Virus record (IMG/VR): IMGVR_UViG_2703719355_000014 | Location: 1 to 11,462 of that record | Strand: one strand, 5' to 3' | From: a virus | Taxonomy: Duplodnaviria > Heunggongvirae > Uroviricota > Caudoviricetes | Length of the DNA stretch: 11,462 nucleotides | Part shown: in pieces, positions 1-11,462 of the stretch | How positions within the stretch are numbered: position 1 is the first letter of the stretch | Layout: every line of letters begins with the position of its first letter | Program-made: the position numbers and the translations under genes | The notes under the pieces: model-generated | What the model was told of the DNA's origin: nothing | What the model saw: the letters and a program-made list of their open reading frames with translations, nothing else | The model's database searches: none

Positions 1-73
1 GCCATACTCCTCCGGCAGAAGCAGAAAAAGCTTATTATGCTTCCATCGGAAACGATGATCTGGCAGCCTGAGT

Positions 74-1234
74 TCACAGATAAAACACTCTCCAGGAAAC
101 CCGGGGCGGTTCATAACGCTCAACCAGACGTTTAAGAATCATGTATCGCACACGACGGATAATGAAGCGATCAAAGTCACCACAGAACATGAATTTTTTA
201 CCCGCCCCGATATCATCAATTTCCTGATCAATGACATACGGTACATTCAACACTGAAGCAGGTGCCACACCAACAATATCCGGCAACCATAAAGGGCGTC
301 CCTGACCGTCTTCCATCTCACTGATCAGTTTCAGCGTATTATCGTTAAACGCCAGGCGGAATTTCGGCCCGCGACGATATGCAGGATCAATGCTGTGTTT
401 CAGAGCCAGAATTTCCTGCCACTTCACCGTATTTGCCGCGGCAGTCTGTGTTGTGCCGGTCACAGATGCGACCAGCCCTTTGGGTTGTTTAGGCGTACCA
501 GCACCAGTTCCCTGAATCAGATAACGGGCTTCACCACGACCAATACGTTCAGCAATGCGACGGGCAAGATAAGCTTCCATATCGATCGCGCTGTCCTGCA
601 GCAACTCATTAGACACACGAATGATTTTCGATGTCATTTTGAGCGCCCCAAGACTTCCCATACCGAAATCGGTGTCTTCTTCACCGGCTTCTTCATTTTC
701 GCCCAGCAGAACACCAACTTCGGAAGTACCATCAGCTGTTGCCCACTCCATAGTGCGACCGTCAGAAGTGGTCAGAATCTGCGCCACACTGGCGATGCCA
801 CCGTAGGATTTCATCTTCTCAACAACTTTCGCCAGGAATGTTTCTGGTACGGTATATCCGCCCTTTTCATCCTGAGCTACACCCTGGGCACGAAGTTCAC
901 GCAACGCCTTTCGTTCTTCTGATGTCAGCTCACTGGCACCGTGACGCATCCACTTATCAAAAACCTGAGCTCGTTTCTCATCCTGTTGCGGATTGTTTTC
1001 CGGATCAAGATTCTGACGCTGCTCTTCCTCATTGCTTTCAATGTACGCCTGATCCTGACGACGCAGTTCTTCTTCGCGTGCAATTCGTTCATCAAGCGCT
1101 TCCAGTTCGGATTTTGCTTTGTTCCACTCAGTGCGCTGCTCTTCCGTCCATGCGTTATCACCAATTTTTTCATTCAGGGCGCGCATGTCAGTTGCGATAG
1201 TATTACGTTTCTGTTTCAGTTCATGCAGTTTCAT
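74..1234 (-). CDS. Major capsid protein, HK97 family
   Basis: 386-aa ORF with a charged coiled-coil N-terminal region (delta-domain-like) followed by a Gly/Thr-rich body typical of the HK97 fold. It follows the prohead protease in canonical order. AAGGAA Shine-Dalgarno 6 nt upstream of the ATG at 1234; TGA stop at 74-76. Confidence 0.85.
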   Translation of the reverse strand: MKLHELKQKRNTIATDMRALNEKIGDNAWTEEQRTEWNKAKSELEALDERIAREEELRRQDQAYIESNEEEQRQNLDPENNPQQDEKRAQVFDKWMRHGASELTSEERKALRELRAQGVAQDEKGGYTVPETFLAKVVEKMKSYGGIASVAQILTTSDGRTMEWATADGTSEVGVLLGENEEAGEEDTDFGMGSLGALKMTSKIIRVSNELLQDSAIDMEAYLARRIAERIGRGEARYLIQGTGAGTPKQPKGLVASVTGTTQTAAANTVKWQEILALKHSIDPAYRRGPKFRLAFNDNTLKLISEMEDGQGRPLWLPDIVGVAPASVLNVPYVIDQEIDDIGAGKKFMFCGDFDRFIIRRVRYMILKRLVERYEPPRVSWRVFYL

Positions 1235-1244
1235 GATGTTTCCT

Positions 1245-1847
1245 TTACGCGTTAAGAAGGGTCAGGACGCGTTCACGCGCCATACGTTGATTAATGGCTT
1301 TCTGTAGCGCGCCACTGTTGCGCGCCTCCTGCCATGCTTTCATGGAGCGAACAGCCGAGTCAGCCTCCTGATAGGCAGGATATGTCACAGGACTGACATC
1401 CAGCAGACGGGAAAAGCGGGTTATCTCGCGAATAACAACCCCGTCCTCATCCTGATACCACTCCTCACCGTCACGGGCGACACGGAAAGCGAAAGATGAC
1501 TGGTTAATATCTCCACGTTGCATCGGGGCCAGCACCAGATCACGAATGGTCTGTGTCTCCGGAGCCTGGATGTCATAGCGTAATCCGCGCTCATCAACTG
1601 AAAGATTCAGCGTGCCTGCTGCACTACGCCCAAGAATAAAATTAGGATCGTGGTTAAACAGTGCGCGTACATCATCACCAAGCACATCGTCAAAAGCGCC
1701 GGGCCGGATGATTTCGCGGAATGAACCGAATATCAGCTCAGAACGACAGTCAAACACCGATCCATAACCGATAATGTGCGCCGGGTTATCGTCATGCCGC
1801 TCAGCACGCACCTCACCGCTGTAACAACGGATTTCACGGTCATTCAT
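1245..1847 (-). CDS. Prohead maturation protease, HK97 family
   Basis: The ORF track gives 1245..1904, but the internal ATG at 1847 (protein MNDREIRCYSGEVRAE...) has a GAGGGA Shine-Dalgarno 7 nt upstream and matches the usual protease N-terminus. This start overlaps the portal stop by 8 nt. Sits between portal and capsid as in HK97. Confidence 0.8.
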   Translation of the reverse strand: MNDREIRCYSGEVRAERHDDNPAHIIGYGSVFDCRSELIFGSFREIIRPGAFDDVLGDDVRALFNHDPNFILGRSAAGTLNLSVDERGLRYDIQAPETQTIRDLVLAPMQRGDINQSSFAFRVARDGEEWYQDEDGVVIREITRFSRLLDVSPVTYPAYQEADSAVRSMKAWQEARNSGALQKAINQRMARERVLTLLNA

Positions 1848-3066
1848 TGGTTTTTCCCTCATCGTTTTTTGGGGGCTTAAAATCTCCTGCCGGGTTAGCA
1901 GCATTCACGCTTACCAGCATCTCGTCCAGCCCTTCAACCGGATTCATATCCTCAAATGCGCGGGCCTCATTACGGCTCATCCATCCATCGGTAATAGCGA
2001 AGTGATAGAATTGCGTGCGCTCCTGCGGAGTTCCGCGTAAAAGCCCCGTCAGATTGAACCTGACGTAATACCCGGCGGCTAACTCAGCGCGGGTAAACAA
2101 GCGACGGTTAAGCTCCTGCTCCCAGTTCGTCACCCACGGCATCATCGTGTAGCGGACAAACTGAATCGCCTGCGCAGAAATATTGGAGAAGGTGGCTTTT
2201 TCGAGGTCATTAATCATGTGCGCAGGAATATTGAAAATACCGGCGATCATTGAACGGTTCAGCTTCATCATGTCAATGATCTGAGCGTCAACTGGCGACA
2301 CAGTCAGTGCCTTGTAATCCAGATCTGCTGGCAGCAGCATGGTTTTGTTTTCCTGGCGGCGTAACGCCTGCGATGCCTTCTGCCACTGTTCTTTAAGCCA
2401 GCCCCAGCTTTCCTTATTGAGTCCGCTTTTAACGGATACTATCCCCGCCGGACGGGCATTACCGCTGAAGAAGCTTTCTGTGTACTTCTGACCGCTCATC
2501 CCCATGCCTATTGTTTCGGCATGTTGCATAATCGGACTCAGCCCCATCTTCTGATTATTACCCAGCGCTCGGATGTGGATCATATCGTCGGGGCTGATCG
2601 CAAACGCCCCATATTCGTTGTACAAACCGTAGGTGTATCGGCCACCAGTATTCATCAGCGTCGTTTCCCACGGCATACAGCAATCCAGGGATATGACTTC
2701 ACCGCGACGATTACGTTTCACCCAGGTATACCCATTCCCCCAGCCAAGGATGTGACGTTGCTTCAGTTCGCGCCATTTGTAACTGGTTTGCCAGGTATTG
2801 GGCTCATCATGAACCAGATAAAACGCCGGATGATCGCGTGCGGGCTCAACCTTCCCATTGTGCCTGCGCATAACATGCAACGGCATCTGGGCAAGGCTGG
2901 AAGACAGGACATAGATACAGGAATACACCGCAGCCAGTTTCATCGCAGTTTCAGGACTGACATAAACGTCTGCCCGGAACAGCCCATCAGTATCAACGGC
3001 ATCCCCGGTTATCGGGGTGGAAGGATTCTCCAGTGATTTACTTCTGAACAGAGCATCAAGCAGCAC
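1840..3066 (-). CDS. Portal protein, HK97 family
   Basis: Long ORF carrying a portal-like ETAMKLAAVYSCI motif near the N-terminus, placed between terminase large subunit and protease. The maximal ORF starts at GTG 3114 with no RBS; GTG 3066 is preceded by a GAAGGGGGA purine-rich RBS and is preferred here. The start is uncertain (3066 or 3114). Confidence 0.8.
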   Translation of the reverse strand: MLLDALFRSKSLENPSTPITGDAVDTDGLFRADVYVSPETAMKLAAVYSCIYVLSSSLAQMPLHVMRRHNGKVEPARDHPAFYLVHDEPNTWQTSYKWRELKQRHILGWGNGYTWVKRNRRGEVISLDCCMPWETTLMNTGGRYTYGLYNEYGAFAISPDDMIHIRALGNNQKMGLSPIMQHAETIGMGMSGQKYTESFFSGNARPAGIVSVKSGLNKESWGWLKEQWQKASQALRRQENKTMLLPADLDYKALTVSPVDAQIIDMMKLNRSMIAGIFNIPAHMINDLEKATFSNISAQAIQFVRYTMMPWVTNWEQELNRRLFTRAELAAGYYVRFNLTGLLRGTPQERTQFYHFAITDGWMSRNEARAFEDMNPVEGLDEMLVSVNAANPAGDFKPPKNDEGKTNE

Positions 3067-3217
3067 GCGTCCCCCTTCTGACCATAACCAGTGCACCCAC
3101 CAGCAGTAAAGCACCGGACAAAATCAGAGCCGGAGCCATACCAAACTGCAGGTAAACTCCGCACGTAAGCAGGCCAAAACCAGTCAGCCCGATAACATCA
3201 GCAATTAGTGATTTCAT
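3056..3217 (-). CDS. Hypothetical small membrane protein (53 aa), candidate only
   Basis: Not in the ORF track (below cut-off). Its ATG at 3217-3215 overlaps the terminase large subunit TGA stop (3216-3214) as ATGA, suggesting translational coupling. Translation [53 protein letters not shown] has two hydrophobic helix-like segments and a basic C-terminus. No clear Shine-Dalgarno; overlaps the portal 5' end in another frame. Confidence 0.3.
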
Positions 3218-4935
3218 AGAATTAAGAGATCATCGTCCGGATCAAGAGATGAGAGGAAATCGCCAGGTTCTTTGAGCATTGCCCGACCGATCGTCATAAT
3301 CAGTGCAACCGCACCATCGATTTTGTTTTCCGCCTGCTCCTTGACGGGCTTCACTAAATCATCGTTACCAGGCATGTTTTTGCCGACCACATTGCCGATA
3401 CACCAGGTCATGATGGGATTGCCGTCATGATGAAAGCGTCCCGATTCAATCGCTGCTTCCAGCTCTTTCATCGGATCGGACATATTGGCGAAGTTCTGGA
3501 CGATAGTGACGGGATTCAGATCTTCATCAGCAAGGTCATGTGACAGCCCGGTCGCCCCGAAGGGGTCGATGGGTGACTCACTGACCGGGCTGATTTTGTT
3601 CGCCGCTTTGGCCTAGCGATAATCCACCTCTGCACCATCGGTAACGGTCAGGACGCCCATTTCCACCCATTTCTGAAAGCGTTCGGCTGTCCGTCTATCT
3701 TCATTTTTCTCGACGCTGTACACCGTGTCATACGGTACCCAGAAGCGCGGGGCCACACTGTAGTAATGCGTTTTACCGTCAATCTCGCGGGTATAAAGTC
3801 GCGCCATGCTGTTCATATCCAGCTTACGCGCCAGGTCAAAGGCCAGAATGCACGGCTGCCCCTCGAACTGCTCAAGGGTCAGTGATTTATCCTCGCAGCT
3901 CTGCCAGCTCACCAGGTTGAAATACGCCGAACGTGCCGACACCCAGATATTGAGGTGTTTCGTTTTAAAGACGTTTGCCAGACGGGCGTTATTTTTCGCA
4001 CGCTGCTGCTGACTTAACAAAAATTCGCGATAAACCGACACGCCAATATTTGGATTGGCTTTTTCCAGCACCTGCGGGTCGGTCCAGTCGTCACCTTCAT
4101 CAACGGTATAGATGATCCCGAACAGTTCATCGTTAGGCACCGAGCCGTTGAGCATCTCGATGACTTCCCGCCGCTTGTCGTAGCACAGCCCCTCAATGTT
4201 GTACCCGGCGGTGGTGATGGCCCACATCAGTGGCTGACGTCGCGCCCCCATCCCGGTAAGCATTGTGGTATAAAGCGCATCGGTGGCATGCTCGTGATAT
4301 TCATCAACCACGGCACAGTGGGGTGATGAACCATCACCGGGGTTACCGATCAGCGGTTCAAACCGCGCGCCATCCTCCGGACGGTTCATGTTTGAGGCGT
4401 TAACCTCAATCCCGAACGCTTCCGTCAGCATGGGTGTGCGTTTACACATCAGTCGCGCCGGGCGAAAGACTTCCCACGCCTGTTTCTCTGTCGTGGCACC
4501 GGAATACACTTCCGCGCCAAACTCGTTATCACAGGCAAAACAATACAGGGCAACACCGGCAGAGATTGCTGATTTGCCGTTCTTACGGGGGATTTCGGTA
4601 TACACCTCCCGGAAGCGGCGCAACCGGGTGCCTTTATTGACCCAGCCAAACGCACAGCAGATCACAAATAGCTGCCACGGCTCCAGCGTGATGGGCATCC
4701 GTTTGAATGCCCACTCACCCTTGGTGTGCGGCAACAGCTGAATAAATTTCGCGGCCCGTTCAGCCAGGTCCTTGTCGAAGCGGTAACGAAACGACTTACT
4801 TTTTTCCGCCATCAGGTCATCAAGATGGCACTGGCAGGCCTGAATCACAAACTGGCAGGCAACAATCTTTCCGCGCACGACATCCCGGGCATACTGATTG
4901 GCAGCATTTACGTTGGGGTAAGATTTCCGGCTCAT
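3214..4935 (-). CDS. Terminase large subunit, interrupted by one in-frame TAG at 3613-3615 (possible pseudogene, suppressed amber or sequencing error)
   Basis: ORFs 3613..4935 (440 aa) and 3214..3483 are in the same frame. I translated 3484-3612 by hand and it is open in that frame (…[55 protein letters not shown]…), so a single TAG separates the two parts. Read through, the product is about 573 aa, a typical size. Its ATG overlaps the terminase small subunit stop (ATGA at 4935-4932). Confidence 0.8.
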
Positions 4936-5426
4936 GACTCGATGATTTTCAGAAACGGGTTAGTGGCTTTCTTCTTCCCCGCCAGGCCAATCAGACGCTG
5001 GCGGCTGCTGGGGTCGAGTCCGAGCATTGCCCCCGTGCTGCTCATCTCGGACTCCTGTTCTTTCTTGGCGGTCAGCTCCGGGTTTTTGACCATACCGCCC
5101 ATTGCACCGGTAATGGTGTTGCCCTGGCTGGCAATATTTTTCACGGCACGTCGCCAGAACTCATAGGCCACGCACCACCGCTCAAGCACCGCGAGGTCAG
5201 TCACGCACAGCAGGCCCTGACCGCAGAGTTCTTTGGTTGTCAGTTGCCACATGATCGTGGCGAGAGGGAGATCTTCTTCAGCGAACCACTCCGGTGGCTC
5301 AACACCTTTGATGGGCGTAAAAACAGGTTCATCTTTATTCAGGGCTCGCTTGCCGGGGTTTCCGGCCAGCGCCTTGCGCGCCGTTGGCTTGGGGCGACGC
5401 CCGGAACGCCCCGCCGTTCCAGCCAT
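4932..5426 (-). CDS. Terminase small subunit (P27-like family)
   Basis: Basic N-terminus [14 protein letters not shown]..., located immediately upstream of and overlapping the large terminase. The ATG at 5426 has an AGGAG Shine-Dalgarno 8 nt upstream; the ORF-track start at 5435 is a GTG without better support. Confidence 0.75.
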
Positions 5427-5435
5427 ATGCGGCAC

Positions 5436-5551
5436 TCCTGGTTAAATTTCATTTTTCGCGGGTATAAAAAAACGATGGGGCGGGCAGTCCGGAAGACGTC
5501 AGGTCACAGGGATTTGACCCGCCCCTCCCCTCAGACAGTTGAGAATTATTA
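5436..5551. other. Candidate cos / packaging-site region (GC-rich dyad between HNH and terminase small subunit)
   Basis: Intergenic segment with GGGGCGGG (5477-5484) and its exact reverse complement CCCGCCCC (5518-5525), an inner GGTCA/TGACC repeat (5502-5506 / 5514-5518) and a GACGTC palindrome (5496-5501). In HK97-like phages cos lies between the HNH gene and the small terminase gene. On the minus strand the dyad is followed by TTTTTTTAT, so a terminator or attenuator is an alternative reading. Confidence 0.3.
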
Positions 5552-5902
5552 TCACTTTAACCGTTCACGGGCCGTCTTCGCCTTATGGCAGGGCCAGCAC
5601 AGACTCTGCAGATTACTGTCGGCATCAGTGCCGCCATGCGCTTTAGGAACGATGTGGTCAACGGTTTTCGCCTCACGCACCACACCAGCATGCAGACATG
5701 ACTGACACAGGCCTTTGTCACGCTTCAGCACACGTCCACGGATGACGTCCCATTTCGCACCATAACCGCGCTGGTGTCGGGACTGGCCTGGCTTGTATTG
5801 CTTCCAGCCTTCGCTTTTGTGGCTTTCGCAGTAGCCTGACGGGTCTGTAGTGGTATTACGGCAGCCGCGAACGCGGCAGGCTTTTGGGATTCGTGATGGC
5901 AT
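5552..5902 (-). CDS. HNH endonuclease (terminase-associated)
   Basis: Zinc-binding HNH motif (CQSCLH...VDHIVPKAHGG...NLQSLCWPCHKAK). The ATG at 5902 has a GGAG Shine-Dalgarno 5 nt upstream; the ORF-track N-terminal extension to 6001 has no support. Position directly upstream of the terminase genes matches the HK97 arrangement. Confidence 0.8.
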   Translation of the reverse strand: MPSRIPKACRVRGCRNTTTDPSGYCESHKSEGWKQYKPGQSRHQRGYGAKWDVIRGRVLKRDKGLCQSCLHAGVVREAKTVDHIVPKAHGGTDADSNLQSLCWPCHKAKTARERLK

Positions 5903-6022
5903 ATGTACTCCAATGAAGAAGCCACCGACATAGCCTCCTCCATTCATCGTGAAACTATTTTCATCTACGCAGTCATGAATTCTTTGTAGAGTTGTGATCA
6001 ATACAACTCACTAATGGAGAGG

Positions 6023-6044
6023 CTTGTCCAACACGTTGGACAAG
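6023..6044. repeat. Palindrome CTTGTCCAAC-AC-GTTGGACAAG (10-bp arms)
   Basis: Perfect 10-bp inverted-repeat arms separated by 2 nt, lying in the 425-bp non-coding region between the HNH start and bor. Could be an operator-like protein binding site or a stable hairpin; function unknown. Confidence 0.4.
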
Positions 6045-6124
6045 TTTCCTGTTTGATTTACTGGACACTATAGAAGGACAGAATGCCTTCCTCACTCGAA
6101 TAACATTAATTAAGGAGGTTCAAC

Positions 6125-6247
6125 ATGTTTCATTCCACAAATCATCAGGCTGTAATTATGGCTGTATCAGTTTGTGCCACAGACCTTTTCCGCTTCACTT
6201 TGAGCCTGATTCATTTCTACCTGACCGGCTCGCCTCTATCTTTTTAA
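6125..6247 (+). CDS. Hypothetical small hydrophobic protein (40 aa), candidate only
   Basis: Near-consensus Shine-Dalgarno TAAGGAGGT 5 nt upstream of the ATG at 6125. Translation MFHSTNHQAVIMAVSVCATDLFRFTLSLIHFYLTGSPLSF has one hydrophobic segment. Below the ORF-track length cut-off; same strand as bor and upstream of it. Confidence 0.3.
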   Translation: MFHSTNHQAVIMAVSVCATDLFRFTLSLIHFYLTGSPLSF

Positions 6248-6427
6248 TCCCCGCTTTATCCAAATTGCATTGCCAGAATGCCGACAACAGACTGACATTC
6301 AAATCCTGACTACCTCCAATAGTCTGACCGTACACCTATATAGTTTTAAATTTCATCAATCCATTTAACTATCGTTTAATTGTTGTCACATAGGATTCTG
6401 CCGTTTTTAACAATGCAGGATAATAAG

Positions 6428-6721
6428 ATGAAAAAAATGTTGTTTTCTGCCGCTCTGGCAATGCTTATTACAGGATGTGCTCAACAGACGTTTACTGTTG
6501 GAAACAAACCGACAGCAGTAACACCAAAGGAAACCATCACCCATCATTTCTTCGTTTCGGGAATTGGACAGGAGAAAACTGTTGATGCAGCCAAAATTTG
6601 TGGCGGCGCAGAAAATGTTGTTAAAACAGAAACCCAGCAAACATTCGTAAATGGATTGCTCGGTTTTATTACTTTAGGCATTTATACTCCGCTGGAAGCG
6701 CGTGTGTATTGCTCACAATAA
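6428..6721 (+). CDS. bor: Bor lipoprotein (lambda Bor-like, serum-resistance lipoprotein family)
   Basis: Translation from the ATG at 6428 (MKKMLFSAALAMLITGCAQQTFTV...) has a signal peptide and LITGC lipobox, is 97 aa, and matches lambda Bor closely from memory. AGGA Shine-Dalgarno 7 nt upstream. Opposite strand to the lysis genes, as in lambda. Confidence 0.9.
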   Translation: MKKMLFSAALAMLITGCAQQTFTVGNKPTAVTPKETITHHFFVSGIGQEKTVDAAKICGGAENVVKTETQQTFVNGLLGFITLGIYTPLEARVYCSQ

Positions 6722-6731
6722 TTGCATGAGT

Positions 6732-6749
6732 TGCCCATCGATATGGGCA
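6732..6749. terminator. Hairpin between convergent bor and Rz (7-bp stem TGCCCAT/ATGGGCA, 4-nt loop)
   Basis: Inverted repeat in the 31-bp gap between the stops of bor and Rz. No clear U-tract on either strand, so terminator function is uncertain. Confidence 0.3.
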
Positions 6750-6752
6750 GCT

Positions 6753-7214
6753 CTATCTGCACTGCTCATTAATATACTTCTGGGTTCCTTCCAGTTGTTT
6801 TTGCATAGTGATCAGCCTCTCTCTGAGGGTGAAATAATCCCGTTCAGCGGTGTCTGCCAGTCGGGGGGAGGCTGCATTATCCACGCCGGAGGCGGTGGTG
6901 GCTTCACGCACTGACTGACAGACTGCTTTGATGTGCAACCGACGACGACCAGCGGCAACATCATCACGCAGAGCATCATTTTCAGCTTTCGCATCAGCTA
7001 ACTCCTTCGTGTATTTTGCATCGAGCGCAGCAACATCACGCTGGCGCACCTGCATGTCAGTAATTGTCGAGTTCGCCAGCTTCAGTTCTCTGGCATTTTT
7101 GTCGCGCTGGGCTTTGTAGGTAATGGCGTTATCGCGGTAATGATTAACAGCCCATGACAGGCAGACGATGATGCAGATAACCAGAGCGGAGATAATCGCG
7201 GTTACTCTGCTCAT
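6753..7214 (-). CDS. Rz: Rz i-spanin (inner-membrane spanin subunit)
   Basis: 153 aa with an N-terminal TM segment and coiled-coil periplasmic domain; nearly identical to lambda Rz from memory. Overlaps the R stop and contains Rz1 embedded in the +1 frame. Confidence 0.9.
6812..6994 (-). CDS. Rz1: Rz1 o-spanin (outer-membrane lipoprotein spanin subunit), embedded in Rz
   Basis: 60-aa ORF wholly inside Rz in another frame. Signal peptide with VVGC lipobox and a proline-rich mature region (PPPPPAW...PPPDW), as in lambda Rz1. Confidence 0.85.
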
Positions 7215-7687
7215 ACCTCAATCTCTCTGACCGTTCCGCCTGCTTCTTTGAATTTTGCAATCAGGCTGTCAGCCTTATGCTCGAACTGACCATAACCAGC
7301 ACCCGGCAGTGAAGCCCAGATATTGCTGCAACGGTCAATTGCCTGACGAATATCACCGCGATCAATCATCGGTAAAGCGCCACACTCTTTAATCTGCTGC
7401 AGAGCTACAGCGTCCTGGCTTTCTGGAGAAAAATCTTTCAGGCCAAGCTGTTTACGGTAAGCATCCCACCAGCGTGAAAGAAGCTGGTAACGTCCGGCGG
7501 CTGTTGACTTGAGTTTCGGGTTTAGCGTGACAAGTTTGCGAGGGTGATCGGAGTAATCAGTGAAGAGTTCACCACCAACAATAACGTCATAACCGTGGTT
7601 ACGTGTCGGTTGTCGTCCGTTATCCGTTCCTTCTGACCAAGCCACCATATCGAGGAAAGCTTTACGCTGGGAATTTAGTACCTGCAT
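7211..7687 (-). CDS. R: Endolysin R (lambda-type lytic transglycosylase)
   Basis: 158 aa, [26 protein letters not shown]...; nearly identical to lambda R over its full length from memory. Sits between holin and Rz. Confidence 0.9.
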
Positions 7688-7690
7688 AAA

Positions 7691-8017
7691 TTACTCCTTA
7701 GAGCCACCAAATTTGTTACCGATTACTCGCATTGCAGCCCCACGAATAGCATTGACACCGATCAGCCCCACCCCACCACCAATGGCAACAGATAGTGATT
7801 TAGGCCATCCGACATACTCAAGAGCGGATGCAAAAGTCAGCGTCAGAGCACCACAGAGTAGAATTTCGAGTGTTTTTCGCTTCCAGCCGCCACCACCGCC
7901 AAAATAGGCAATACGTAAACCAGCCATAACAATCGACATAATCACTGCGCCCAGCGGTGTGTCTCCACGCCACCAGCTCTGGACCAACTCCAGCCAGGTA
8001 TTTGGGTTATGAGGCAT
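7691..8017 (-). CDS. S: Holin, lambda S family (class I)
   Basis: 108 aa with hydrophobic helices and a basic C-terminal tail. Pattern resembles lambda S (…MAGLRIAYFGGGG… against lambda …MAYLRGRYNGG…). Immediately upstream of R. Confidence 0.8.
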   Translation of the reverse strand: MPHNPNTWLELVQSWWRGDTPLGAVIMSIVMAGLRIAYFGGGGGWKRKTLEILLCGALTLTFASALEYVGWPKSLSVAIGGGVGLIGVNAIRGAAMRVIGNKFGGSKE

Positions 8018-8159
8018 TTGTAGTTATCTCTCACCTCGCCAATACAGGAGGTGCAAATTGAGGGAACATCATGTACCGCAAATCAGAAGCGGAAACGTAA
8101 AAGAGGCCGAGCCAATGGATAACTGCGGTATAGACCAGGCTCAACAAATAGCCGGGTCC

Positions 8160-8188
8160 AGAAACGACAAACCCGCTCGACGGCGGGT
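8160..8188 (-). terminator. Candidate intrinsic terminator (tR'-like) on the minus strand
   Basis: Stem ACCCGC/GCGGGT (8171-8176 / 8183-8188) with a 6-nt loop. On the minus strand it is followed by TTGTCGTTTCT. It lies about 210 nt downstream of the candidate late promoter, comparable to the lambda pR'-tR' spacing. Confidence 0.3.
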
Positions 8189-8401
8189 TTAAGCTGTGTG
8201 GCGAAGTGACCACTCTTAACACGATACAATAGTTTTTGCGTACGCGTTAGCATTTTTGATGGAAGTTAATGGTTGTTAATCTTATACTCAGTAAACAAAA
8301 TTTATGCCGCCTTGAGCATGATGCGACATTAGGCACATGTTTGGATCTTCCTCGAAGATTCGTGCGGTAGCTATGCTCAAAATCCAATCAGCTCATAAAA
8401 C

Positions 8402-8430
8402 ATACTATGGGTTTTAAATGCTCATTCCAA
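8402..8430 (-). promoter_or_regulatory. Candidate sigma70 late promoter (pR'-like) on the minus strand
   Basis: Minus-strand TTGGAA (-35; plus 8425-8430), 17-nt spacer, TAGTAT (-10; plus 8402-8407). Overlaps the start codon of the first cassette gene on the other strand. Found by eye only and lies in AT-rich DNA where such matches arise by chance. Confidence 0.2.
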
Positions 8431-9167
8431 CATCTCTATCAAAACAACCAGTAATCGAAGCTGCTTTCGAAATGCGTTTTTCTAAAGAAACACAAATATC
8501 GGAAATAGTTCCAGGGTTTCTTTTTCACGCTCTAGGTTGTACAAAACCAGTAATTAGTTTACCACCCAGTCAAATACCTAAAAATGTTCGTGAGGGAGAT
8601 GAACAATTACATTACGCAGTTGTCAGTCGCCTCGAAATCGAAGGGTACTATATTGGACTAAGTGACCATGGTGTTGTTGTATCCACCAGCACCAAATATC
8701 AAGGGTGGAGTCATTTTAGAGAAAAAATCATTCATGTATTAAATGAGCTTAACAAATTAAATTTAAATGACAACATCATCCGCTACTCATTAAAGTATGT
8801 AGATTTTTTCCCAAAAGAAGACGATTCTAATTTATTTGATAAGCTAAACGTCAGCTTAAATATGGCTGGCGAGTCTATGTCTAATTATCCGATCAATATC
8901 AGAATCGATAAAAATGAAGGCGCATTTCTAAATATAATTCAAATATTATCTCATGCTTTAGTCATGTCAGATAATGGAGAATTTAATAAAAAAGGACTAA
9001 TCCTAGACATAGACAGTATTAGGCAAATCACTAATACTGATGAAATAGATAAGTTTAAAAACGAACCCAAAAAAATTCTTGATGATCTTCACTCCTGTAA
9101 TAAATTAGCTTTCTTTAGTTGCCTTAAAGAGTCAACAATTCAAGAACTAGAACCATCCTACAAATAG
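8418..9167 (+). CDS. Hypothetical protein (249 aa), first gene of AT-rich cassette
   Basis: Long ORF on the strand opposite to the phage late operon, with Asn/Lys/Ile-rich composition typical of low-GC DNA. TAG stop. No catalytic motif recognised; weak GGG-type RBS only. Confidence 0.7.
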   Translation: MLIPTSLSKQPVIEAAFEMRFSKETQISEIVPGFLFHALGCTKPVISLPPSQIPKNVREGDEQLHYAVVSRLEIEGYYIGLSDHGVVVSTSTKYQGWSHFREKIIHVLNELNKLNLNDNIIRYSLKYVDFFPKEDDSNLFDKLNVSLNMAGESMSNYPINIRIDKNEGAFLNIIQILSHALVMSDNGEFNKKGLILDIDSIRQITNTDEIDKFKNEPKKILDDLHSCNKLAFFSCLKESTIQELEPSYK

Positions 9168-9182
9168 AAATGGTGGTATGAT

Positions 9183-9527
9183 ATGTATCCGTCTCATCAT
9201 GTTTATCGAGCTCAACTTCAAGTATTAACTTTGGTTTTATATGGTCTGCATATAACAGCATTAACAGACATTGCCCAAAATCAACAGCATGGTCCTCAAC
9301 AAAGTTTAATCGTCAAAAATCACGCTTTGGAGTATAAGTCTTCAACTACCGATTCAGTTCATTCCATCACACAAACATATAAAGCAGGGAGCACAATCTC
9401 AGTTGATCAAAGACTTGCAGTCTCGATGACAAACTTTTATGAAAAATTATCAACAAACCAGGTGTCTTTAGGCAGTGAAATAAATAAAGTCGTTCATGCT
9501 TCACTGTGGGATTTATACTTGGATTAA
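9183..9527 (+). CDS. Hypothetical protein (114 aa), second cassette gene
   Basis: ATG at 9183 is preceded by a GGTGG Shine-Dalgarno 6 nt upstream and lies 15 nt after the upstream stop. N-terminal hydrophobic stretch (LQVLTLVLYGLHITAL) may be a membrane anchor. Stop TAA at 9525-9527. Confidence 0.6.
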   Translation: MYPSHHVYRAQLQVLTLVLYGLHITALTDIAQNQQHGPQQSLIVKNHALEYKSSTTDSVHSITQTYKAGSTISVDQRLAVSMTNFYEKLSTNQVSLGSEINKVVHASLWDLYLD

Positions 9528-9530
9528 GTG

Positions 9531-10145
9531 ATGAGTAATAACATTTTTGATATCGAGAAATTCAAAGATCAAATTCCATATTATTTAACAGCTCCTCAAA
9601 AAGAAGGGCTAATAAATGCACTTAGAGATTTCCCTGAAAACACTAACTACTACCTTACCAATTATCATGATGATCTGAAAAATGCTGCACTTCAGGGAGA
9701 TATATTTAAGGAGCTTACAGTATATTCAATTAAAGGGACTAAAAAAACACGAGGAATTATATTAAGCAACAGTTGCGATATAGATACAAGTAATAATCGT
9801 GATGTGCCAATGCGTGCAGTCTTTGCTCCGTTAGTAAGTTTATCTAAGTTCGAAGCTATTCTTCTCTCCAACGGAGTTTCTAAGACTTCAATAGATAGCA
9901 AAATTGATGCTATAAGGAAGCAGTTAATTACTAATATTTTTTATCTTCCTGAATCAGACAACTTAGAAGAATGCATCGTTTTTCTTGATGATGTATACCA
10001 ATTACCAACGGAAGAATTACAAAAACTCTTGAATGATAAATGCAAAGCCATAACTTTAAGTCAAGTTGGTTTCTACATTTTACTATTCAAAATATCTATT
10101 CACTTTTGTAGATTCCATGAAAACATACAACGATTCGATCATTAA
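9531..10145 (+). CDS. Hypothetical protein (204 aa), third cassette gene
   Basis: Start ATG 9531 (or GTG 9528) immediately follows the upstream TAA, giving TAAGTGATG and suggesting translational coupling. No recognisable domain. TAA stop directly followed by an intrinsic terminator. Confidence 0.7.
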   Translation: MSNNIFDIEKFKDQIPYYLTAPQKEGLINALRDFPENTNYYLTNYHDDLKNAALQGDIFKELTVYSIKGTKKTRGIILSNSCDIDTSNNRDVPMRAVFAPLVSLSKFEAILLSNGVSKTSIDSKIDAIRKQLITNIFYLPESDNLEECIVFLDDVYQLPTEELQKLLNDKCKAITLSQVGFYILLFKISIHFCRFHENIQRFDH

Positions 10146-10172
10146 GGCGGTACTACCGCCTTTTATTATTTT
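10144..10172 (+). terminator. Rho-independent terminator of the cassette operon
   Basis: AAGGCGG-tacta-CCGCCTT stem-loop directly followed by TTTTATTATTTT on the plus strand. The T-tract overlaps the stop codon of the convergent Q gene. Confidence 0.6.
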
Positions 10173-10515
10173 ACACAAGTATACTTACAACCCCCTCTAT
10201 AAAACCGATTGCGGTTTGCAACTCCTTCCTAATAGTGCCATCAGAGCACCTTCTCTTTTTGGCAATAGTGCGTAATGAGATACCAATAACAAAGTGGGCT
10301 ATGATGAGCTCATATTCCTCTGGTTTATACCTTCTCAACCGAGCCACACAACTGTCTATCATAATGCCTTCGTCATCATCACACTGAATCCGTGACTTTT
10401 TGCCATGAGGTAAAAGCCCCTTGAAGCCTGCTGCTACCGGCTGCCAGTCCACACCACTGTTGTCTGCTGCAGCCCATGCTCCCCAGCGGTCCAATACTTC
10501 ATACATATCACGCAT
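10171..10515 (-). CDS. Late-gene antitermination protein Q (QuuD-like, Phage_antitermQ family)
   Basis: Translation from the ATG at 10515 (MRDMYEVLDRWGAWAAADNSGVDWQPVAAGFKGL...CSDGTIRKELQTAIGFIEG...) resembles the DLP12 QuuD-type Q proteins as I recall them. GGAG Shine-Dalgarno 7 nt upstream; the ORF-track TTG start at 10530 is less likely. Confidence 0.75.
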   Translation of the reverse strand: MRDMYEVLDRWGAWAAADNSGVDWQPVAAGFKGLLPHGKKSRIQCDDDEGIMIDSCVARLRRYKPEEYELIIAHFVIGISLRTIAKKRRCSDGTIRKELQTAIGFIEGVVSILV

Positions 10516-10533
10516 CAACTTACTCCACAAAAA

Positions 10534-11451
10534 TCAGGCCAGCACGCCAATTGCCAGCGCACGATCGATAAAACGAAATATCAGCTCCAGCTGGGAGCCA
10601 TACTTCTCTTCAAATGCCACGGTATCCGCATGCAGCTCGTCGTGATGCTTTCTGCACAAAGGCAACACAAAGAGATCATGCGCTTTTGTACCCATTCCAC
10701 CCTGACCGTGGCCTATCAGGTGGTGGGGATCATCAGCAGGCTTTCCACAACATGCACACGGTTGCGTCTTAACCCAGCGCGTGTACTTTTCATTAACCCA
10801 GCGGCGACGTTTTGGGCGTAACATAAAAGACTCCGGCGACTCCGGATCCACTTTCAGCGCCAGCACCTTTTTCGCTTTATCCTGGATGATGCTGGTGGCA
10901 GGAACCGAAGGCACAAGGTCACTTTCCCGGGTGACAGATGGCACAACAGGCTTCGGTAATCTCAGTGCCTTACGGGCTGCACTTTCCGGTAAGGCATCCG
11001 CCAGATCATTACGAATCAACCACCAGCACAGTTCCGGCATTGTCACAACGTGACTGTCATCAAAACCGAGATCCCGACGCACAACAGACAACACCCAGCG
11101 GGCACAGTTATCCGTTGCCATTGATTCCAGCCATTCCGTGAACTGATCGCGCAGCTGGTTATCGCAGTGCCAGCACAGACGGATTGCGCCCGGAGCGTGT
11201 CGCATTGTGGTCATGTTCTCGCTGTGCCAGTCGGAATGAGGCCACTGGCAGCCTTTTTCACGAAGTAACCAGCTTTCAAGACATTCCACGCCACCAGCAC
11301 GACGGATCACTGCCTCATTGCGGAACACGGCCCGAACGGCAGGATCATCCGCCAGCGGTTGTGATGCCGCCGGAACGGCACCACTGGCGAAAGATGAGTA
11401 ACGTTCCGGCTCAGGCTCCAGCAGGACACGCCCCTGCATAAACAGGGGCAT
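10534..11451 (-). CDS. DUF968-family phage protein (putative HNH-like zinc-binding protein, YdfU-like)
   Basis: C-terminal CxxC...HH...C..HH motif (QPCACCGKPADDPHHLIGHGQGG...LCRKHHDELH) typical of DUF968 proteins that sit upstream of Q in lambdoid prophages. The frame stays open from 11452 to the window end, so the true start may lie beyond the window. Confidence 0.7.
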   Translation of the reverse strand: MPLFMQGRVLLEPEPERYSSFASGAVPAASQPLADDPAVRAVFRNEAVIRRAGGVECLESWLLREKGCQWPHSDWHSENMTTMRHAPGAIRLCWHCDNQLRDQFTEWLESMATDNCARWVLSVVRRDLGFDDSHVVTMPELCWWLIRNDLADALPESAARKALRLPKPVVPSVTRESDLVPSVPATSIIQDKAKKVLALKVDPESPESFMLRPKRRRWVNEKYTRWVKTQPCACCGKPADDPHHLIGHGQGGMGTKAHDLFVLPLCRKHHDELHADTVAFEEKYGSQLELIFRFIDRALAIGVLA

Positions 11452-11462
11452 CAGCTCTGAAC

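Follow-up and report, generated by a model that had tools for sequence, protein, structure and literature searches.

The window analysed here is a stretch of 11,462 nucleotides from a tailed phage (Caudoviricetes; IMG/VR record IMGVR_UViG_2703719355_000014, positions 1 to 11,462), and the subject of this report is an AT-rich cassette of three genes at 8220–10172, between the gene for antiterminator Q and the lysis genes. With a probability of roughly one half, the cassette is an uncharacterised tripartite toxin–antitoxin-like or abortive-infection module that has an effector of MazF/CcdB fold and is expressed in lysogens. This reading draws on the gene structure, the cargo status and mobility of the cassette, the strict linkage of its three genes, and the MazF-like fold predicted for the product of the third open reading frame (ORF3).

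In the proposed mechanism, ORF3 would be a MazF/CcdB-fold toxin, most likely an endoribonuclease, and the ORF2 product would restrain it as an antitoxin or an adaptor, perhaps at the membrane. The ORF1 product, of family TIGR04255, would be the obligatory third partner, with a part as sensor, regulator or modifying enzyme. If another phage infected the cell, or if the element were lost, ORF3 would be released and the cell arrested; to the advantage of the prophage, this would work as abortive infection, superinfection exclusion or addiction. The orientation agrees with this mechanism: since the cassette is convergent with Q, is located upstream of the late promoter block and ends in a terminator of its own, its genes would be transcribed in the lysogen, and antisense transcription would oppose them once the prophage itself grows lytically. 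By analogy, the operon logic resembles that of toxin–antitoxin pairs, with a small variable gene abutting the gene of the putative effector.

Gene structure and predicted products of the cassette

The cassette has the following parts:
8258–8417, + strand: 5′ non-coding leader, presumed promoter region, with which the cargo DNA begins
8418–9167, + strand: ORF1, 249 amino acids (aa), TIGR04255 family
9183–9527, + strand: ORF2, 114 aa
9528–10145, + strand: ORF3, 205 aa from a GTG codon or 204 aa if started, as in RefSeq, at the ATG at 9531
10144–10172, + strand: intrinsic terminator found in a terminator scan, in the interval from the ORF3 stop to that of the convergent Q gene

An earlier first-pass annotation, made from the sequence without database searches, had described three co-oriented ORFs opposite to the surrounding late genes, and this arrangement was found: the ORFs of 249, 114 and 204–205 aa are on the + strand, and their neighbours are all on the − strand. 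For wider comparison, one genome per species was scanned, which gave 144 genomes with an ORF3 relative, and synteny counts refer to the best 80 loci. On sequence comparison the three ORFs are real genes, because all three proteins match PHROG families (E 1e-59 to 1e-132) and the trio is kept in 79 of 80 distant genomes. The GC content of 8220–10172 was measured to be 33.8%, with 29–31% in the lowest 300-nucleotide windows, against 50.5% (6753–8220) and 52.7% (10171–11462) in the flanks; the AT-richness described earlier was thus correct, and only the estimate by eye of about 30% GC was too low. The terminator hairpin (10144–10162) has an 8-bp stem with five G–C pairs and is followed by the U-tract TTATTATTTT. 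With a folding energy of −11.7 kcal/mol and z = −4.8 relative to shuffled sequences, the terminator is real, and solid more than exceptionally strong. Read on the − strand, the hairpin is without a good U-tract. A candidate promoter may lie in the leader (8258–8417), where a TATACT −10-like hexamer with a weak −35 was seen by eye on the + strand at 8283–8288.

ORF3 relatives were found in 469 clusters by word index, at about 45–50% identity, in Proteobacteria and beyond. The AlphaFold2 (AF2) model of ORF3, made from 56 homologs, has a predicted local distance difference test (pLDDT) score of 82.9, with more than 90 in the core and poor values at residues 194–199. The model has an SH3-like β-barrel core with a C-terminal helix, which is the arrangement that defines the CcdB/MazF fold, and its top 11 structural neighbours were all found to be toxins of toxin–antitoxin systems, with MazF, Kid and CcdB matched. 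To this predicted barrel, ORF3 adds an N-terminal helical extension and a two-helix insertion after the third strand, and its C-terminal helix bears the conserved motif HFCRFHE, in which HFCR is invariant. The invariant residues of the family include Q55-G56-D57, N80, C82, D83, R90, H191 and C193, and it may be speculated that C82, H191, C193 and H196 form a metal site. A MazF/CcdB-like fold is claimed for ORF3 on this model, whereas family membership and RNase chemistry are not claimed. The fold call rests on the predicted structure because no sequence-level link to MazF, PemK or CcdB was found: a hidden Markov model from MazF seeds gave E values of 0.2–0.8 with ORF3, and PDB sequence searches gave no significant match, whether the query was one of the three proteins or a family profile of ORF1 or ORF3. 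The toxin–antitoxin-like idea of the first-pass annotation thus gained support at the level of fold, from the matches of the ORF3 model to MazF, Kid and CcdB and from the small variable gene upstream, but not at the level of sequence homology to known toxins or defence proteins.

ORF2 corresponds to phrog_5728 (E 4e-59). A word-index search returned only its own cluster, and its homologs were recovered through synteny. The alignment of 73 syntenic homologs has a short conserved N-terminus, a segment of some 17 residues with moderate hydrophobicity (median Kyte–Doolittle value 1.66), a variable linker rich in Ser, Thr and Asn, and a conserved acidic/aromatic C-terminus with the motif ...LG.EFE.VL..NLWDLY, ending in ...NLWDLY(E/Q)S. 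ORF2 evolves fast, and its stop codon abuts the ORF3 start, an adjacency as in type II toxin–antitoxin pairs that is syntenic in at least 73 of the 80 loci. These features, with the acidic C-terminus taken as a helix, make ORF2 a candidate antitoxin-like protein or adaptor. MazE binds MazF through its C-terminus, and the pattern of ORF2 would similarly suit a labile partner that binds the effector via its own C-terminus.

ORF1 matches the NCBIfam model TIGR04255 with 96.2 bits (cut-off 30) over model positions 2–251 of 252, and ten distant syntenic homologs all exceed the cut-off, with 82–128 bits. The earlier statement that none of the proteins belongs to a nameable family stands for ORF2 and ORF3, which have no Pfam or NCBIfam model, but not for ORF1; TIGR04255 is a named family without an assigned function, and a Pfam scan gave no match for ORF1, ORF2 or ORF3. 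The word index gave 23 close relatives of ORF1 and a full profile search 2036 representatives, the best 150 of which are all stand-alone proteins of about 250 aa. The ORF1 model is confident (pLDDT 89.9) and of α+β type; its PDB structural neighbours fall in the grey zone, and it resembles kinases and ligases weakly in structure. Numerous invariant Glu, Arg, Lys, His and Asp residues are placed on strands, a pattern that looks enzyme-like or ligand-binding in the model. In the neighbour table of DefensePredictor, a TIGR04255 protein at ±1 adds a mean Shapley additive explanations (SHAP) value of +1.62 towards “defensive” (n = 9), on a par with AAA ATPases (1.43) or helicases, while transposases add 0.53; this is a weak hint in favour of a defence role.

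Cargo status, mobility and phage settings of the trio

Alignment to related prophages gives the cargo one border at about 8228–8257, towards the holin gene, and another at the Q stop, about 10171–10200, which essentially matches the extent of 8220–10172 given in the first-pass annotation. The 1953-bp cassette stretch was found in 92 of 5426 complete Escherichia coli genomes (1.7%), always with at least 99% identity, and the Q gene adjoins it in 30 of the 30 E. coli records listed. Because of this sporadic occurrence, the cassette is not a core phage function; it is cargo that was acquired horizontally, and its site in the prophage is a genuine hotspot. An empty site between Q and the holin gene, which the first-pass annotation had proposed to look for in related prophages, was not found: with an artificial query that joins the holin side to the Q side, no genome was detected in which Q directly abuts the holin block, and every relative inspected holds some cargo at the site. 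At least nine alternative cargoes were found there, mostly antisense, as had been expected of a cargo hotspot:
A65EC: nucleoid-associated protein and hypothetical protein, antisense
FAHZZU6724: SDH-family Clp-fold protease, antisense
XH988: KAP NTPase, antisense
FDAARGOS_1262: 248-aa hypothetical protein, antisense
MIN10: DNA methyltransferase and hypothetical protein, sense
DLP12: nmpC porin, antisense
PA-2: lc porin, antisense
Phage SfII: two genes, antisense
Phage SfIV: two genes, antisense

Presence of the cassette genes as core genes in all related phages, together with a lack of phenotype, had been named as an outcome that would contradict an accessory module, and the sister prophages were found to carry other genes at the site. 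The features of a lambdoid moron at a cargo hotspot were observed, namely variable presence between conserved flanks, foreign composition and an own terminator; for an own promoter, no convincing site was located in the scan. The Q–holin interval of SfII/SfIV-like, thrW-integrated E. coli prophages is hereby documented as a rich, mostly antisense cargo hotspot that can be mined for other systems, and the alternative antisense cargoes, which are mostly uncharacterised, are possible defence candidates themselves. The KAP NTPase, the nucleoid-associated protein with its hypothetical partner, the SDH Clp-fold protease and the SfII and SfIV two-gene sets were located at L092 4625–5956, L003 5618–7820, L004 5782–6777, L121 2786–4400 and L123 2405–3827.

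The three genes were found to stay together over large distances. An ORF1 homolog lies immediately upstream in 79 of the best 80 loci, the exception being a contig of 1.7 kb, and a syntenic ORF2 homolog of 104–135 aa is detectable in 73, while the others keep a gap of about 290 nucleotides at the place of ORF2. The same order of 249, 114 and about 204 aa is seen in Allochromatium, Trinickia, Candidatus Symbiobacter and Klebsiella prophages. The GC content of the module is lower than that of its flanks in 71 of 72 loci, with a median difference of 12.7 points. On these comparisons the trio is horizontally mobile across many phyla, and the horizontally acquired accessory module of the first-pass annotation is well borne out. 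In one locus from a metagenome-assembled genome of Arenicellales (L089, 7090–9992), about 1.8 kb is inserted between ORF1 and ORF2/ORF3; this is the sole interrupted trio of the 80 loci.

Most copies of the trio are chromosomal and lie outside prophages. Individual copies were found in the context of toxin–antitoxin genes, reverse transcriptases, Wadjet and integrases. The commonest nearest-neighbour families in bacterial chromosomes are integrases (7 of 142) and resolvases (3), and there are few defence genes among the 142 nearest neighbours (DrmA, type II methyltransferases, AriA, Old and PycC). The trio therefore behaves as a small mobile islet more than as a regular member of large defence islands. 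Among viral contigs of IMG/VR, 23 carry an ORF1 relative, and all seven that were checked for ORF2 and ORF3 hold the full triad. At locus L120 the triad is kept at an ORF1 identity of 22% and adjoins a putative large-terminase ORF, with a P-loop motif seen by eye. The E. coli plasmid CP085522.1 contains a fragmented partial copy of ORF3 (hit H79, 31207–31604; 56% identity, two pieces, three places), which may be what is left of a related module after decay.

A megablast search of the cassette against 50,697 phage records gave no match, and a search at the protein level led to the phages Dobby and VW-6S. In Klebsiella lambdoid prophages the trio lies antisense in the nin region. In Pseudomonas phage VW-6S it is directly downstream of the cI repressor gene and co-oriented with it; downstream of cI is also the position that rexAB occupies in lambda. 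In the P2-like phage Dobby it adjoins the portal gene, convergent, at the cos-proximal end. Dobby is a viable phiCTX-like phage without ctx (PMC7454045), and the region of P2 from gpA to the portal gene gpQ, home of old and tin, is a hotspot of anti-phage systems (Rousset et al., PMC9122126). All four phage settings would predict expression in the lysogen and silence or antisense opposition in the lytic phase, and by analogy the four positions appear typical of lysogen-expressed exclusion or defence cargo.

Comparison with known systems and alternative explanations

What distinguishes the trio from MazEF, PemIK (Kis–Kid) and CcdAB? ORF3 is twice the size of these toxins (204 aa against about 110), carries in addition the N-terminal helical extension, the two-helix insertion and the C-terminal HFCRFHE motif described above, and has no Pfam PemK or CcdB match and no significant profile match. 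ORF2 has no signature of AbrB, ribbon–helix–helix (RHH) or another DNA-binding fold, and a hydrophobic segment stands at its start. The cassette also has an obligatory third gene, of TIGR04255, before the pair. Type III toxin–antitoxin systems (ToxIN, AbiQ, CptIN) were rejected as candidates, since a tandem-repeat antitoxin RNA and an Rfam family are lacking, and the third component of the trio is not the SecB-like chaperone that marks tripartite toxin–antitoxin–chaperone (TAC) systems. A split MazF-like barrel with an α-helical insertion occurs in GajC of type II Gabija (Liu-DS1), where it presumably acts as the effector in an anti-phage system of several genes (PMC13069673). The likeness of GajC to ORF3 is architectural only, and the partner in type II Gabija is the UvrD-type helicase GajB, with neither a TIGR04255 protein nor a small ORF2-like protein.

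In genomic logic, the trio is like lambda rexAB, P2 old/tin and Rst_3HP, which are lysogen-expressed cargo in variable hotspots of temperate phages, although their proteins are unrelated to those of the trio. Rst_3HP (“hp+hp+hp”, from the P2 hotspot) likewise consists of three proteins without a predicted domain. Identity with it was rejected, as the 3HP proteins are of about 335, 355 and 225 aa and the motifs of the trio are absent from the tables of the 3HP paper. The morons between Q and S (stx, lc in PA-2 and nmpC in DLP12) share with the cassette the interval, the foreign composition and the own terminator, and lc and nmpC share also the antisense orientation. Their products are secreted toxins or porins, whereas those of the trio would be cytoplasmic or membrane-associated and toxin–antitoxin-like in design. 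In Stx phages the cargo is downstream of the late promoter, and in this respect stx differs from the trio, which apparently lies between Q and the late-promoter block.

Several results weigh against a toxin–antitoxin-like or abortive-infection module with a MazF/CcdB-fold effector. A sigma-70 consensus scan upstream of ORF1 on the + strand gave no strong match. A Pfam scan with the ORF3 of the window and 56 family members gave no relevant match at E ≤ 10, and hhalign comparisons of the ORF3 family with MazF sequences and a small MazF alignment gave probabilities of 0.1–1.2%. In favour of the fold, the non-significant hhalign registers put KGIILSN opposite RPAVVLS, FAP opposite the strand-3 motif and LDD...P opposite ADQV, in agreement with motif equivalences drawn by eye. 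In this weak register, the catalytic Arg-Pro and Thr positions of MazF are not obviously conserved: Arg-Pro (Arg29 in E. coli MazF) falls on (K/R)-G of KGIILSN, and after FAP there is no conserved Thr or Ser (Thr52 in E. coli MazF). The biochemistry of ORF3 may differ from RNA cleavage, because D57, N80, C82, D83, R90, H191 and C193 lie away from the MazF catalytic positions. ORF2 was observed to have no recognisable DNA-binding antitoxin domain in Pfam, NCBIfam and PDB searches. A PADLOC run, which the first-pass annotation had proposed, was negative, in that no protein of the trio matches any of the 5027 models of PADLOC-DB v2.0.0 at E ≤ 1. The nearest chromosomal neighbours are mostly housekeeping genes, so that the defence-island signal among the 142 neighbours is weak. 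No specific literature was found on TIGR04255, on the RefSeq accessions of the cassette or on MazF-like three-gene systems, and the accessions are not among the entries listed in the DefensePredictor supplements.

The same fold and operon evidence would also suit a pure addiction module, that is, a selfish toxin–antitoxin-like element that stabilises its carrier DNA by post-segregational killing and has no anti-phage role. Many copies stand alone beside housekeeping genes or integrases and not in defence islands, and the near-identical copies in about 1.7% of E. coli genomes fit a recent selfish spread. Pure addiction is nevertheless unlikely, since the exclusion or defence positions in four unrelated types of temperate phage are better explained by a benefit against competing phages, and an obligatory third protein of 250 aa is unusual for simple addiction modules. 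Addiction and anti-phage roles are not mutually exclusive.

A further explanation is that the trio has a non-toxic accessory function, in which the ORF3 barrel would be a binding scaffold and the trio would serve another task of lysogenic conversion, for example a regulatory, stress or metabolic pathway with a TIGR04255 enzyme, or anti-defence. The lack of evident conservation of the MazF catalytic residues is consistent with this, as is the own invariant Cys/His/Asp set of ORF3, which could serve in metal binding or as another kind of active site; so are the enzyme-like invariant charged residues of ORF1, with its weak structural similarity to kinases and ligases, and the lack of PADLOC matches. 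We consider such a function rather improbable, given that each of the 11 best structural matches of ORF3 is a toxin from a toxin–antitoxin system and that a sporadic, AT-rich and mobile trio found across phyla, free-living environmental bacteria included, speaks against a virulence or metabolic role tied to one host. Genes for anti-defence are as a rule confined to phages and expressed early, whereas most copies of the trio are chromosomal and outside prophages. An ordinary housekeeping or late-gene function, or an AT-rich non-functional remnant, is effectively refuted: although all three proteins are in PHROG families and the host prophage is apparently defective, with a nonsense codon in terL, the cassette is absent from most related prophages, which have other genes at the site, it lies on the strand opposite to the late operon with its own terminator, it occurs in non-phage chromosomal contexts, and its ORFs are intact with motifs conserved over 144 species.

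A more specific form of the toxin–antitoxin-like or abortive-infection reading can be put forward tentatively. The trio may be a new, widespread three-component anti-phage abortive-infection system, consisting of a TIGR04255 protein, a small membrane-associated adaptor and a MazF-fold effector, that at least four lineages of temperate phages have captured into defence hotspots. In it, the TIGR04255 protein would be a sensor or enzyme controlling a toxin with a non-canonical, possibly Cys/His metal-dependent active site. If true, a compact (about 1.75 kb) and broadly distributed three-gene system would join the prophage-borne defence or toxin–antitoxin modules, a first function would be given to TIGR04255 and to two families known solely as PHROG families of unknown function, without a Pfam or NCBIfam model, and the MazF/CcdB toxin fold would gain a further elaboration. 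Specialists already expect many such systems in prophage hotspots, and the cassette, which is small, self-contained and native to E. coli, is a readily testable candidate.

Host prophage, late promoter block and neighbouring genes

The window covers the late region of an E. coli prophage of lambdoid type, in which Q, holin, endolysin and Rz are all on the − strand. The features around the cassette are:
10534–11451, − strand: DUF968/HNH-like protein
10171–10530, − strand: antiterminator Q (PF06530, E 1.4e-44), convergent with the cassette; right border of the cargo site
8018–8257, − strand: conserved non-coding block with a hairpin and T-tract at 8191–8168; left border of the cargo site
7691–8017, − strand: holin of the lambda-S family (PF05106, E 2e-24), first lysis gene
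7211–7687, − strand: endolysin
6753–7214, − strand: Rz

In the annotation of ACN002, the RefSeq start of Q is at 10515, which gives 114 aa. Further down on the − strand follow genes for an HNH endonuclease, a P27-type small terminase, the large terminase, portal, HK97 protease and capsid.

The conserved block upstream of the holin gene (8018–8257) is 85–94% identical to the sister (thrW-type) prophages, SfII and SfIV, and is matched in part by DLP12, PA-2 and Stx phages. It contains the invariant stretch TGTTAAGAGTGGT.ACTTCG.CACACAGCTTAAACC ahead of the hairpin and T-tract, and the scan gave a promoter-like site, TTAACA-16-AAAAAT, at 8279–8252 on the − strand. The record of PA-2 annotates a CRP site within the stretch that matches this block. 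In the joined-query comparison, about 230 bp upstream of the holin gene was found to be widely common and the stretch from there to Q variable, and the DNA just downstream of the Q stop diverges among sister prophages. The block is probably the late promoter/qut/tR′ unit, and the cargo would then sit between Q and the late promoter. The unit is placed in the holin-proximal block because the hairpin, T-tract and promoter-like site are found there, while the DNA after Q is not conserved.

The best-matching host prophage is that of strain ACN002, which is integrated beside a tRNA-Thr gene near proA and is made up of lambda-like early genes, a P27/HK97-type head module and a Mu-like contractile tail. 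Two parts of the window, 1–3291 (portal, protease and capsid) and 5903–7274 (bor/Rz), have no blastn match to the ACN002 prophage, with the gene order unchanged, and the rest is 95–99% identical to it; the sequence differences in these two modules are clear mosaic module exchange. The terL gene (3214–4935, − strand) has an in-frame stop at 3613–3615, after codon 440, and the frame runs on past this stop and matches the C-terminal part of an intact 577-aa homolog, in one frame at 96.5% identity. Unless the stop in terL is a sequencing error, packaging is probably defective in this prophage. A 60-aa ORF embedded in Rz (6812–6994, − strand) has a lipoprotein-type signal (…LVVVGC) and is the Rz1 o-spanin. 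A second AT-rich cargo site, with 38–43% GC, was found at 5900–6750 between Rz and the HNH/terminase genes. In the window it holds the Bor/Iss-type lipoprotein gene bor (6380–6721, + strand, antisense to the late genes), and in sister prophages it holds GrlR, DUF6236, iss, or Rha with an S1 peptidase.

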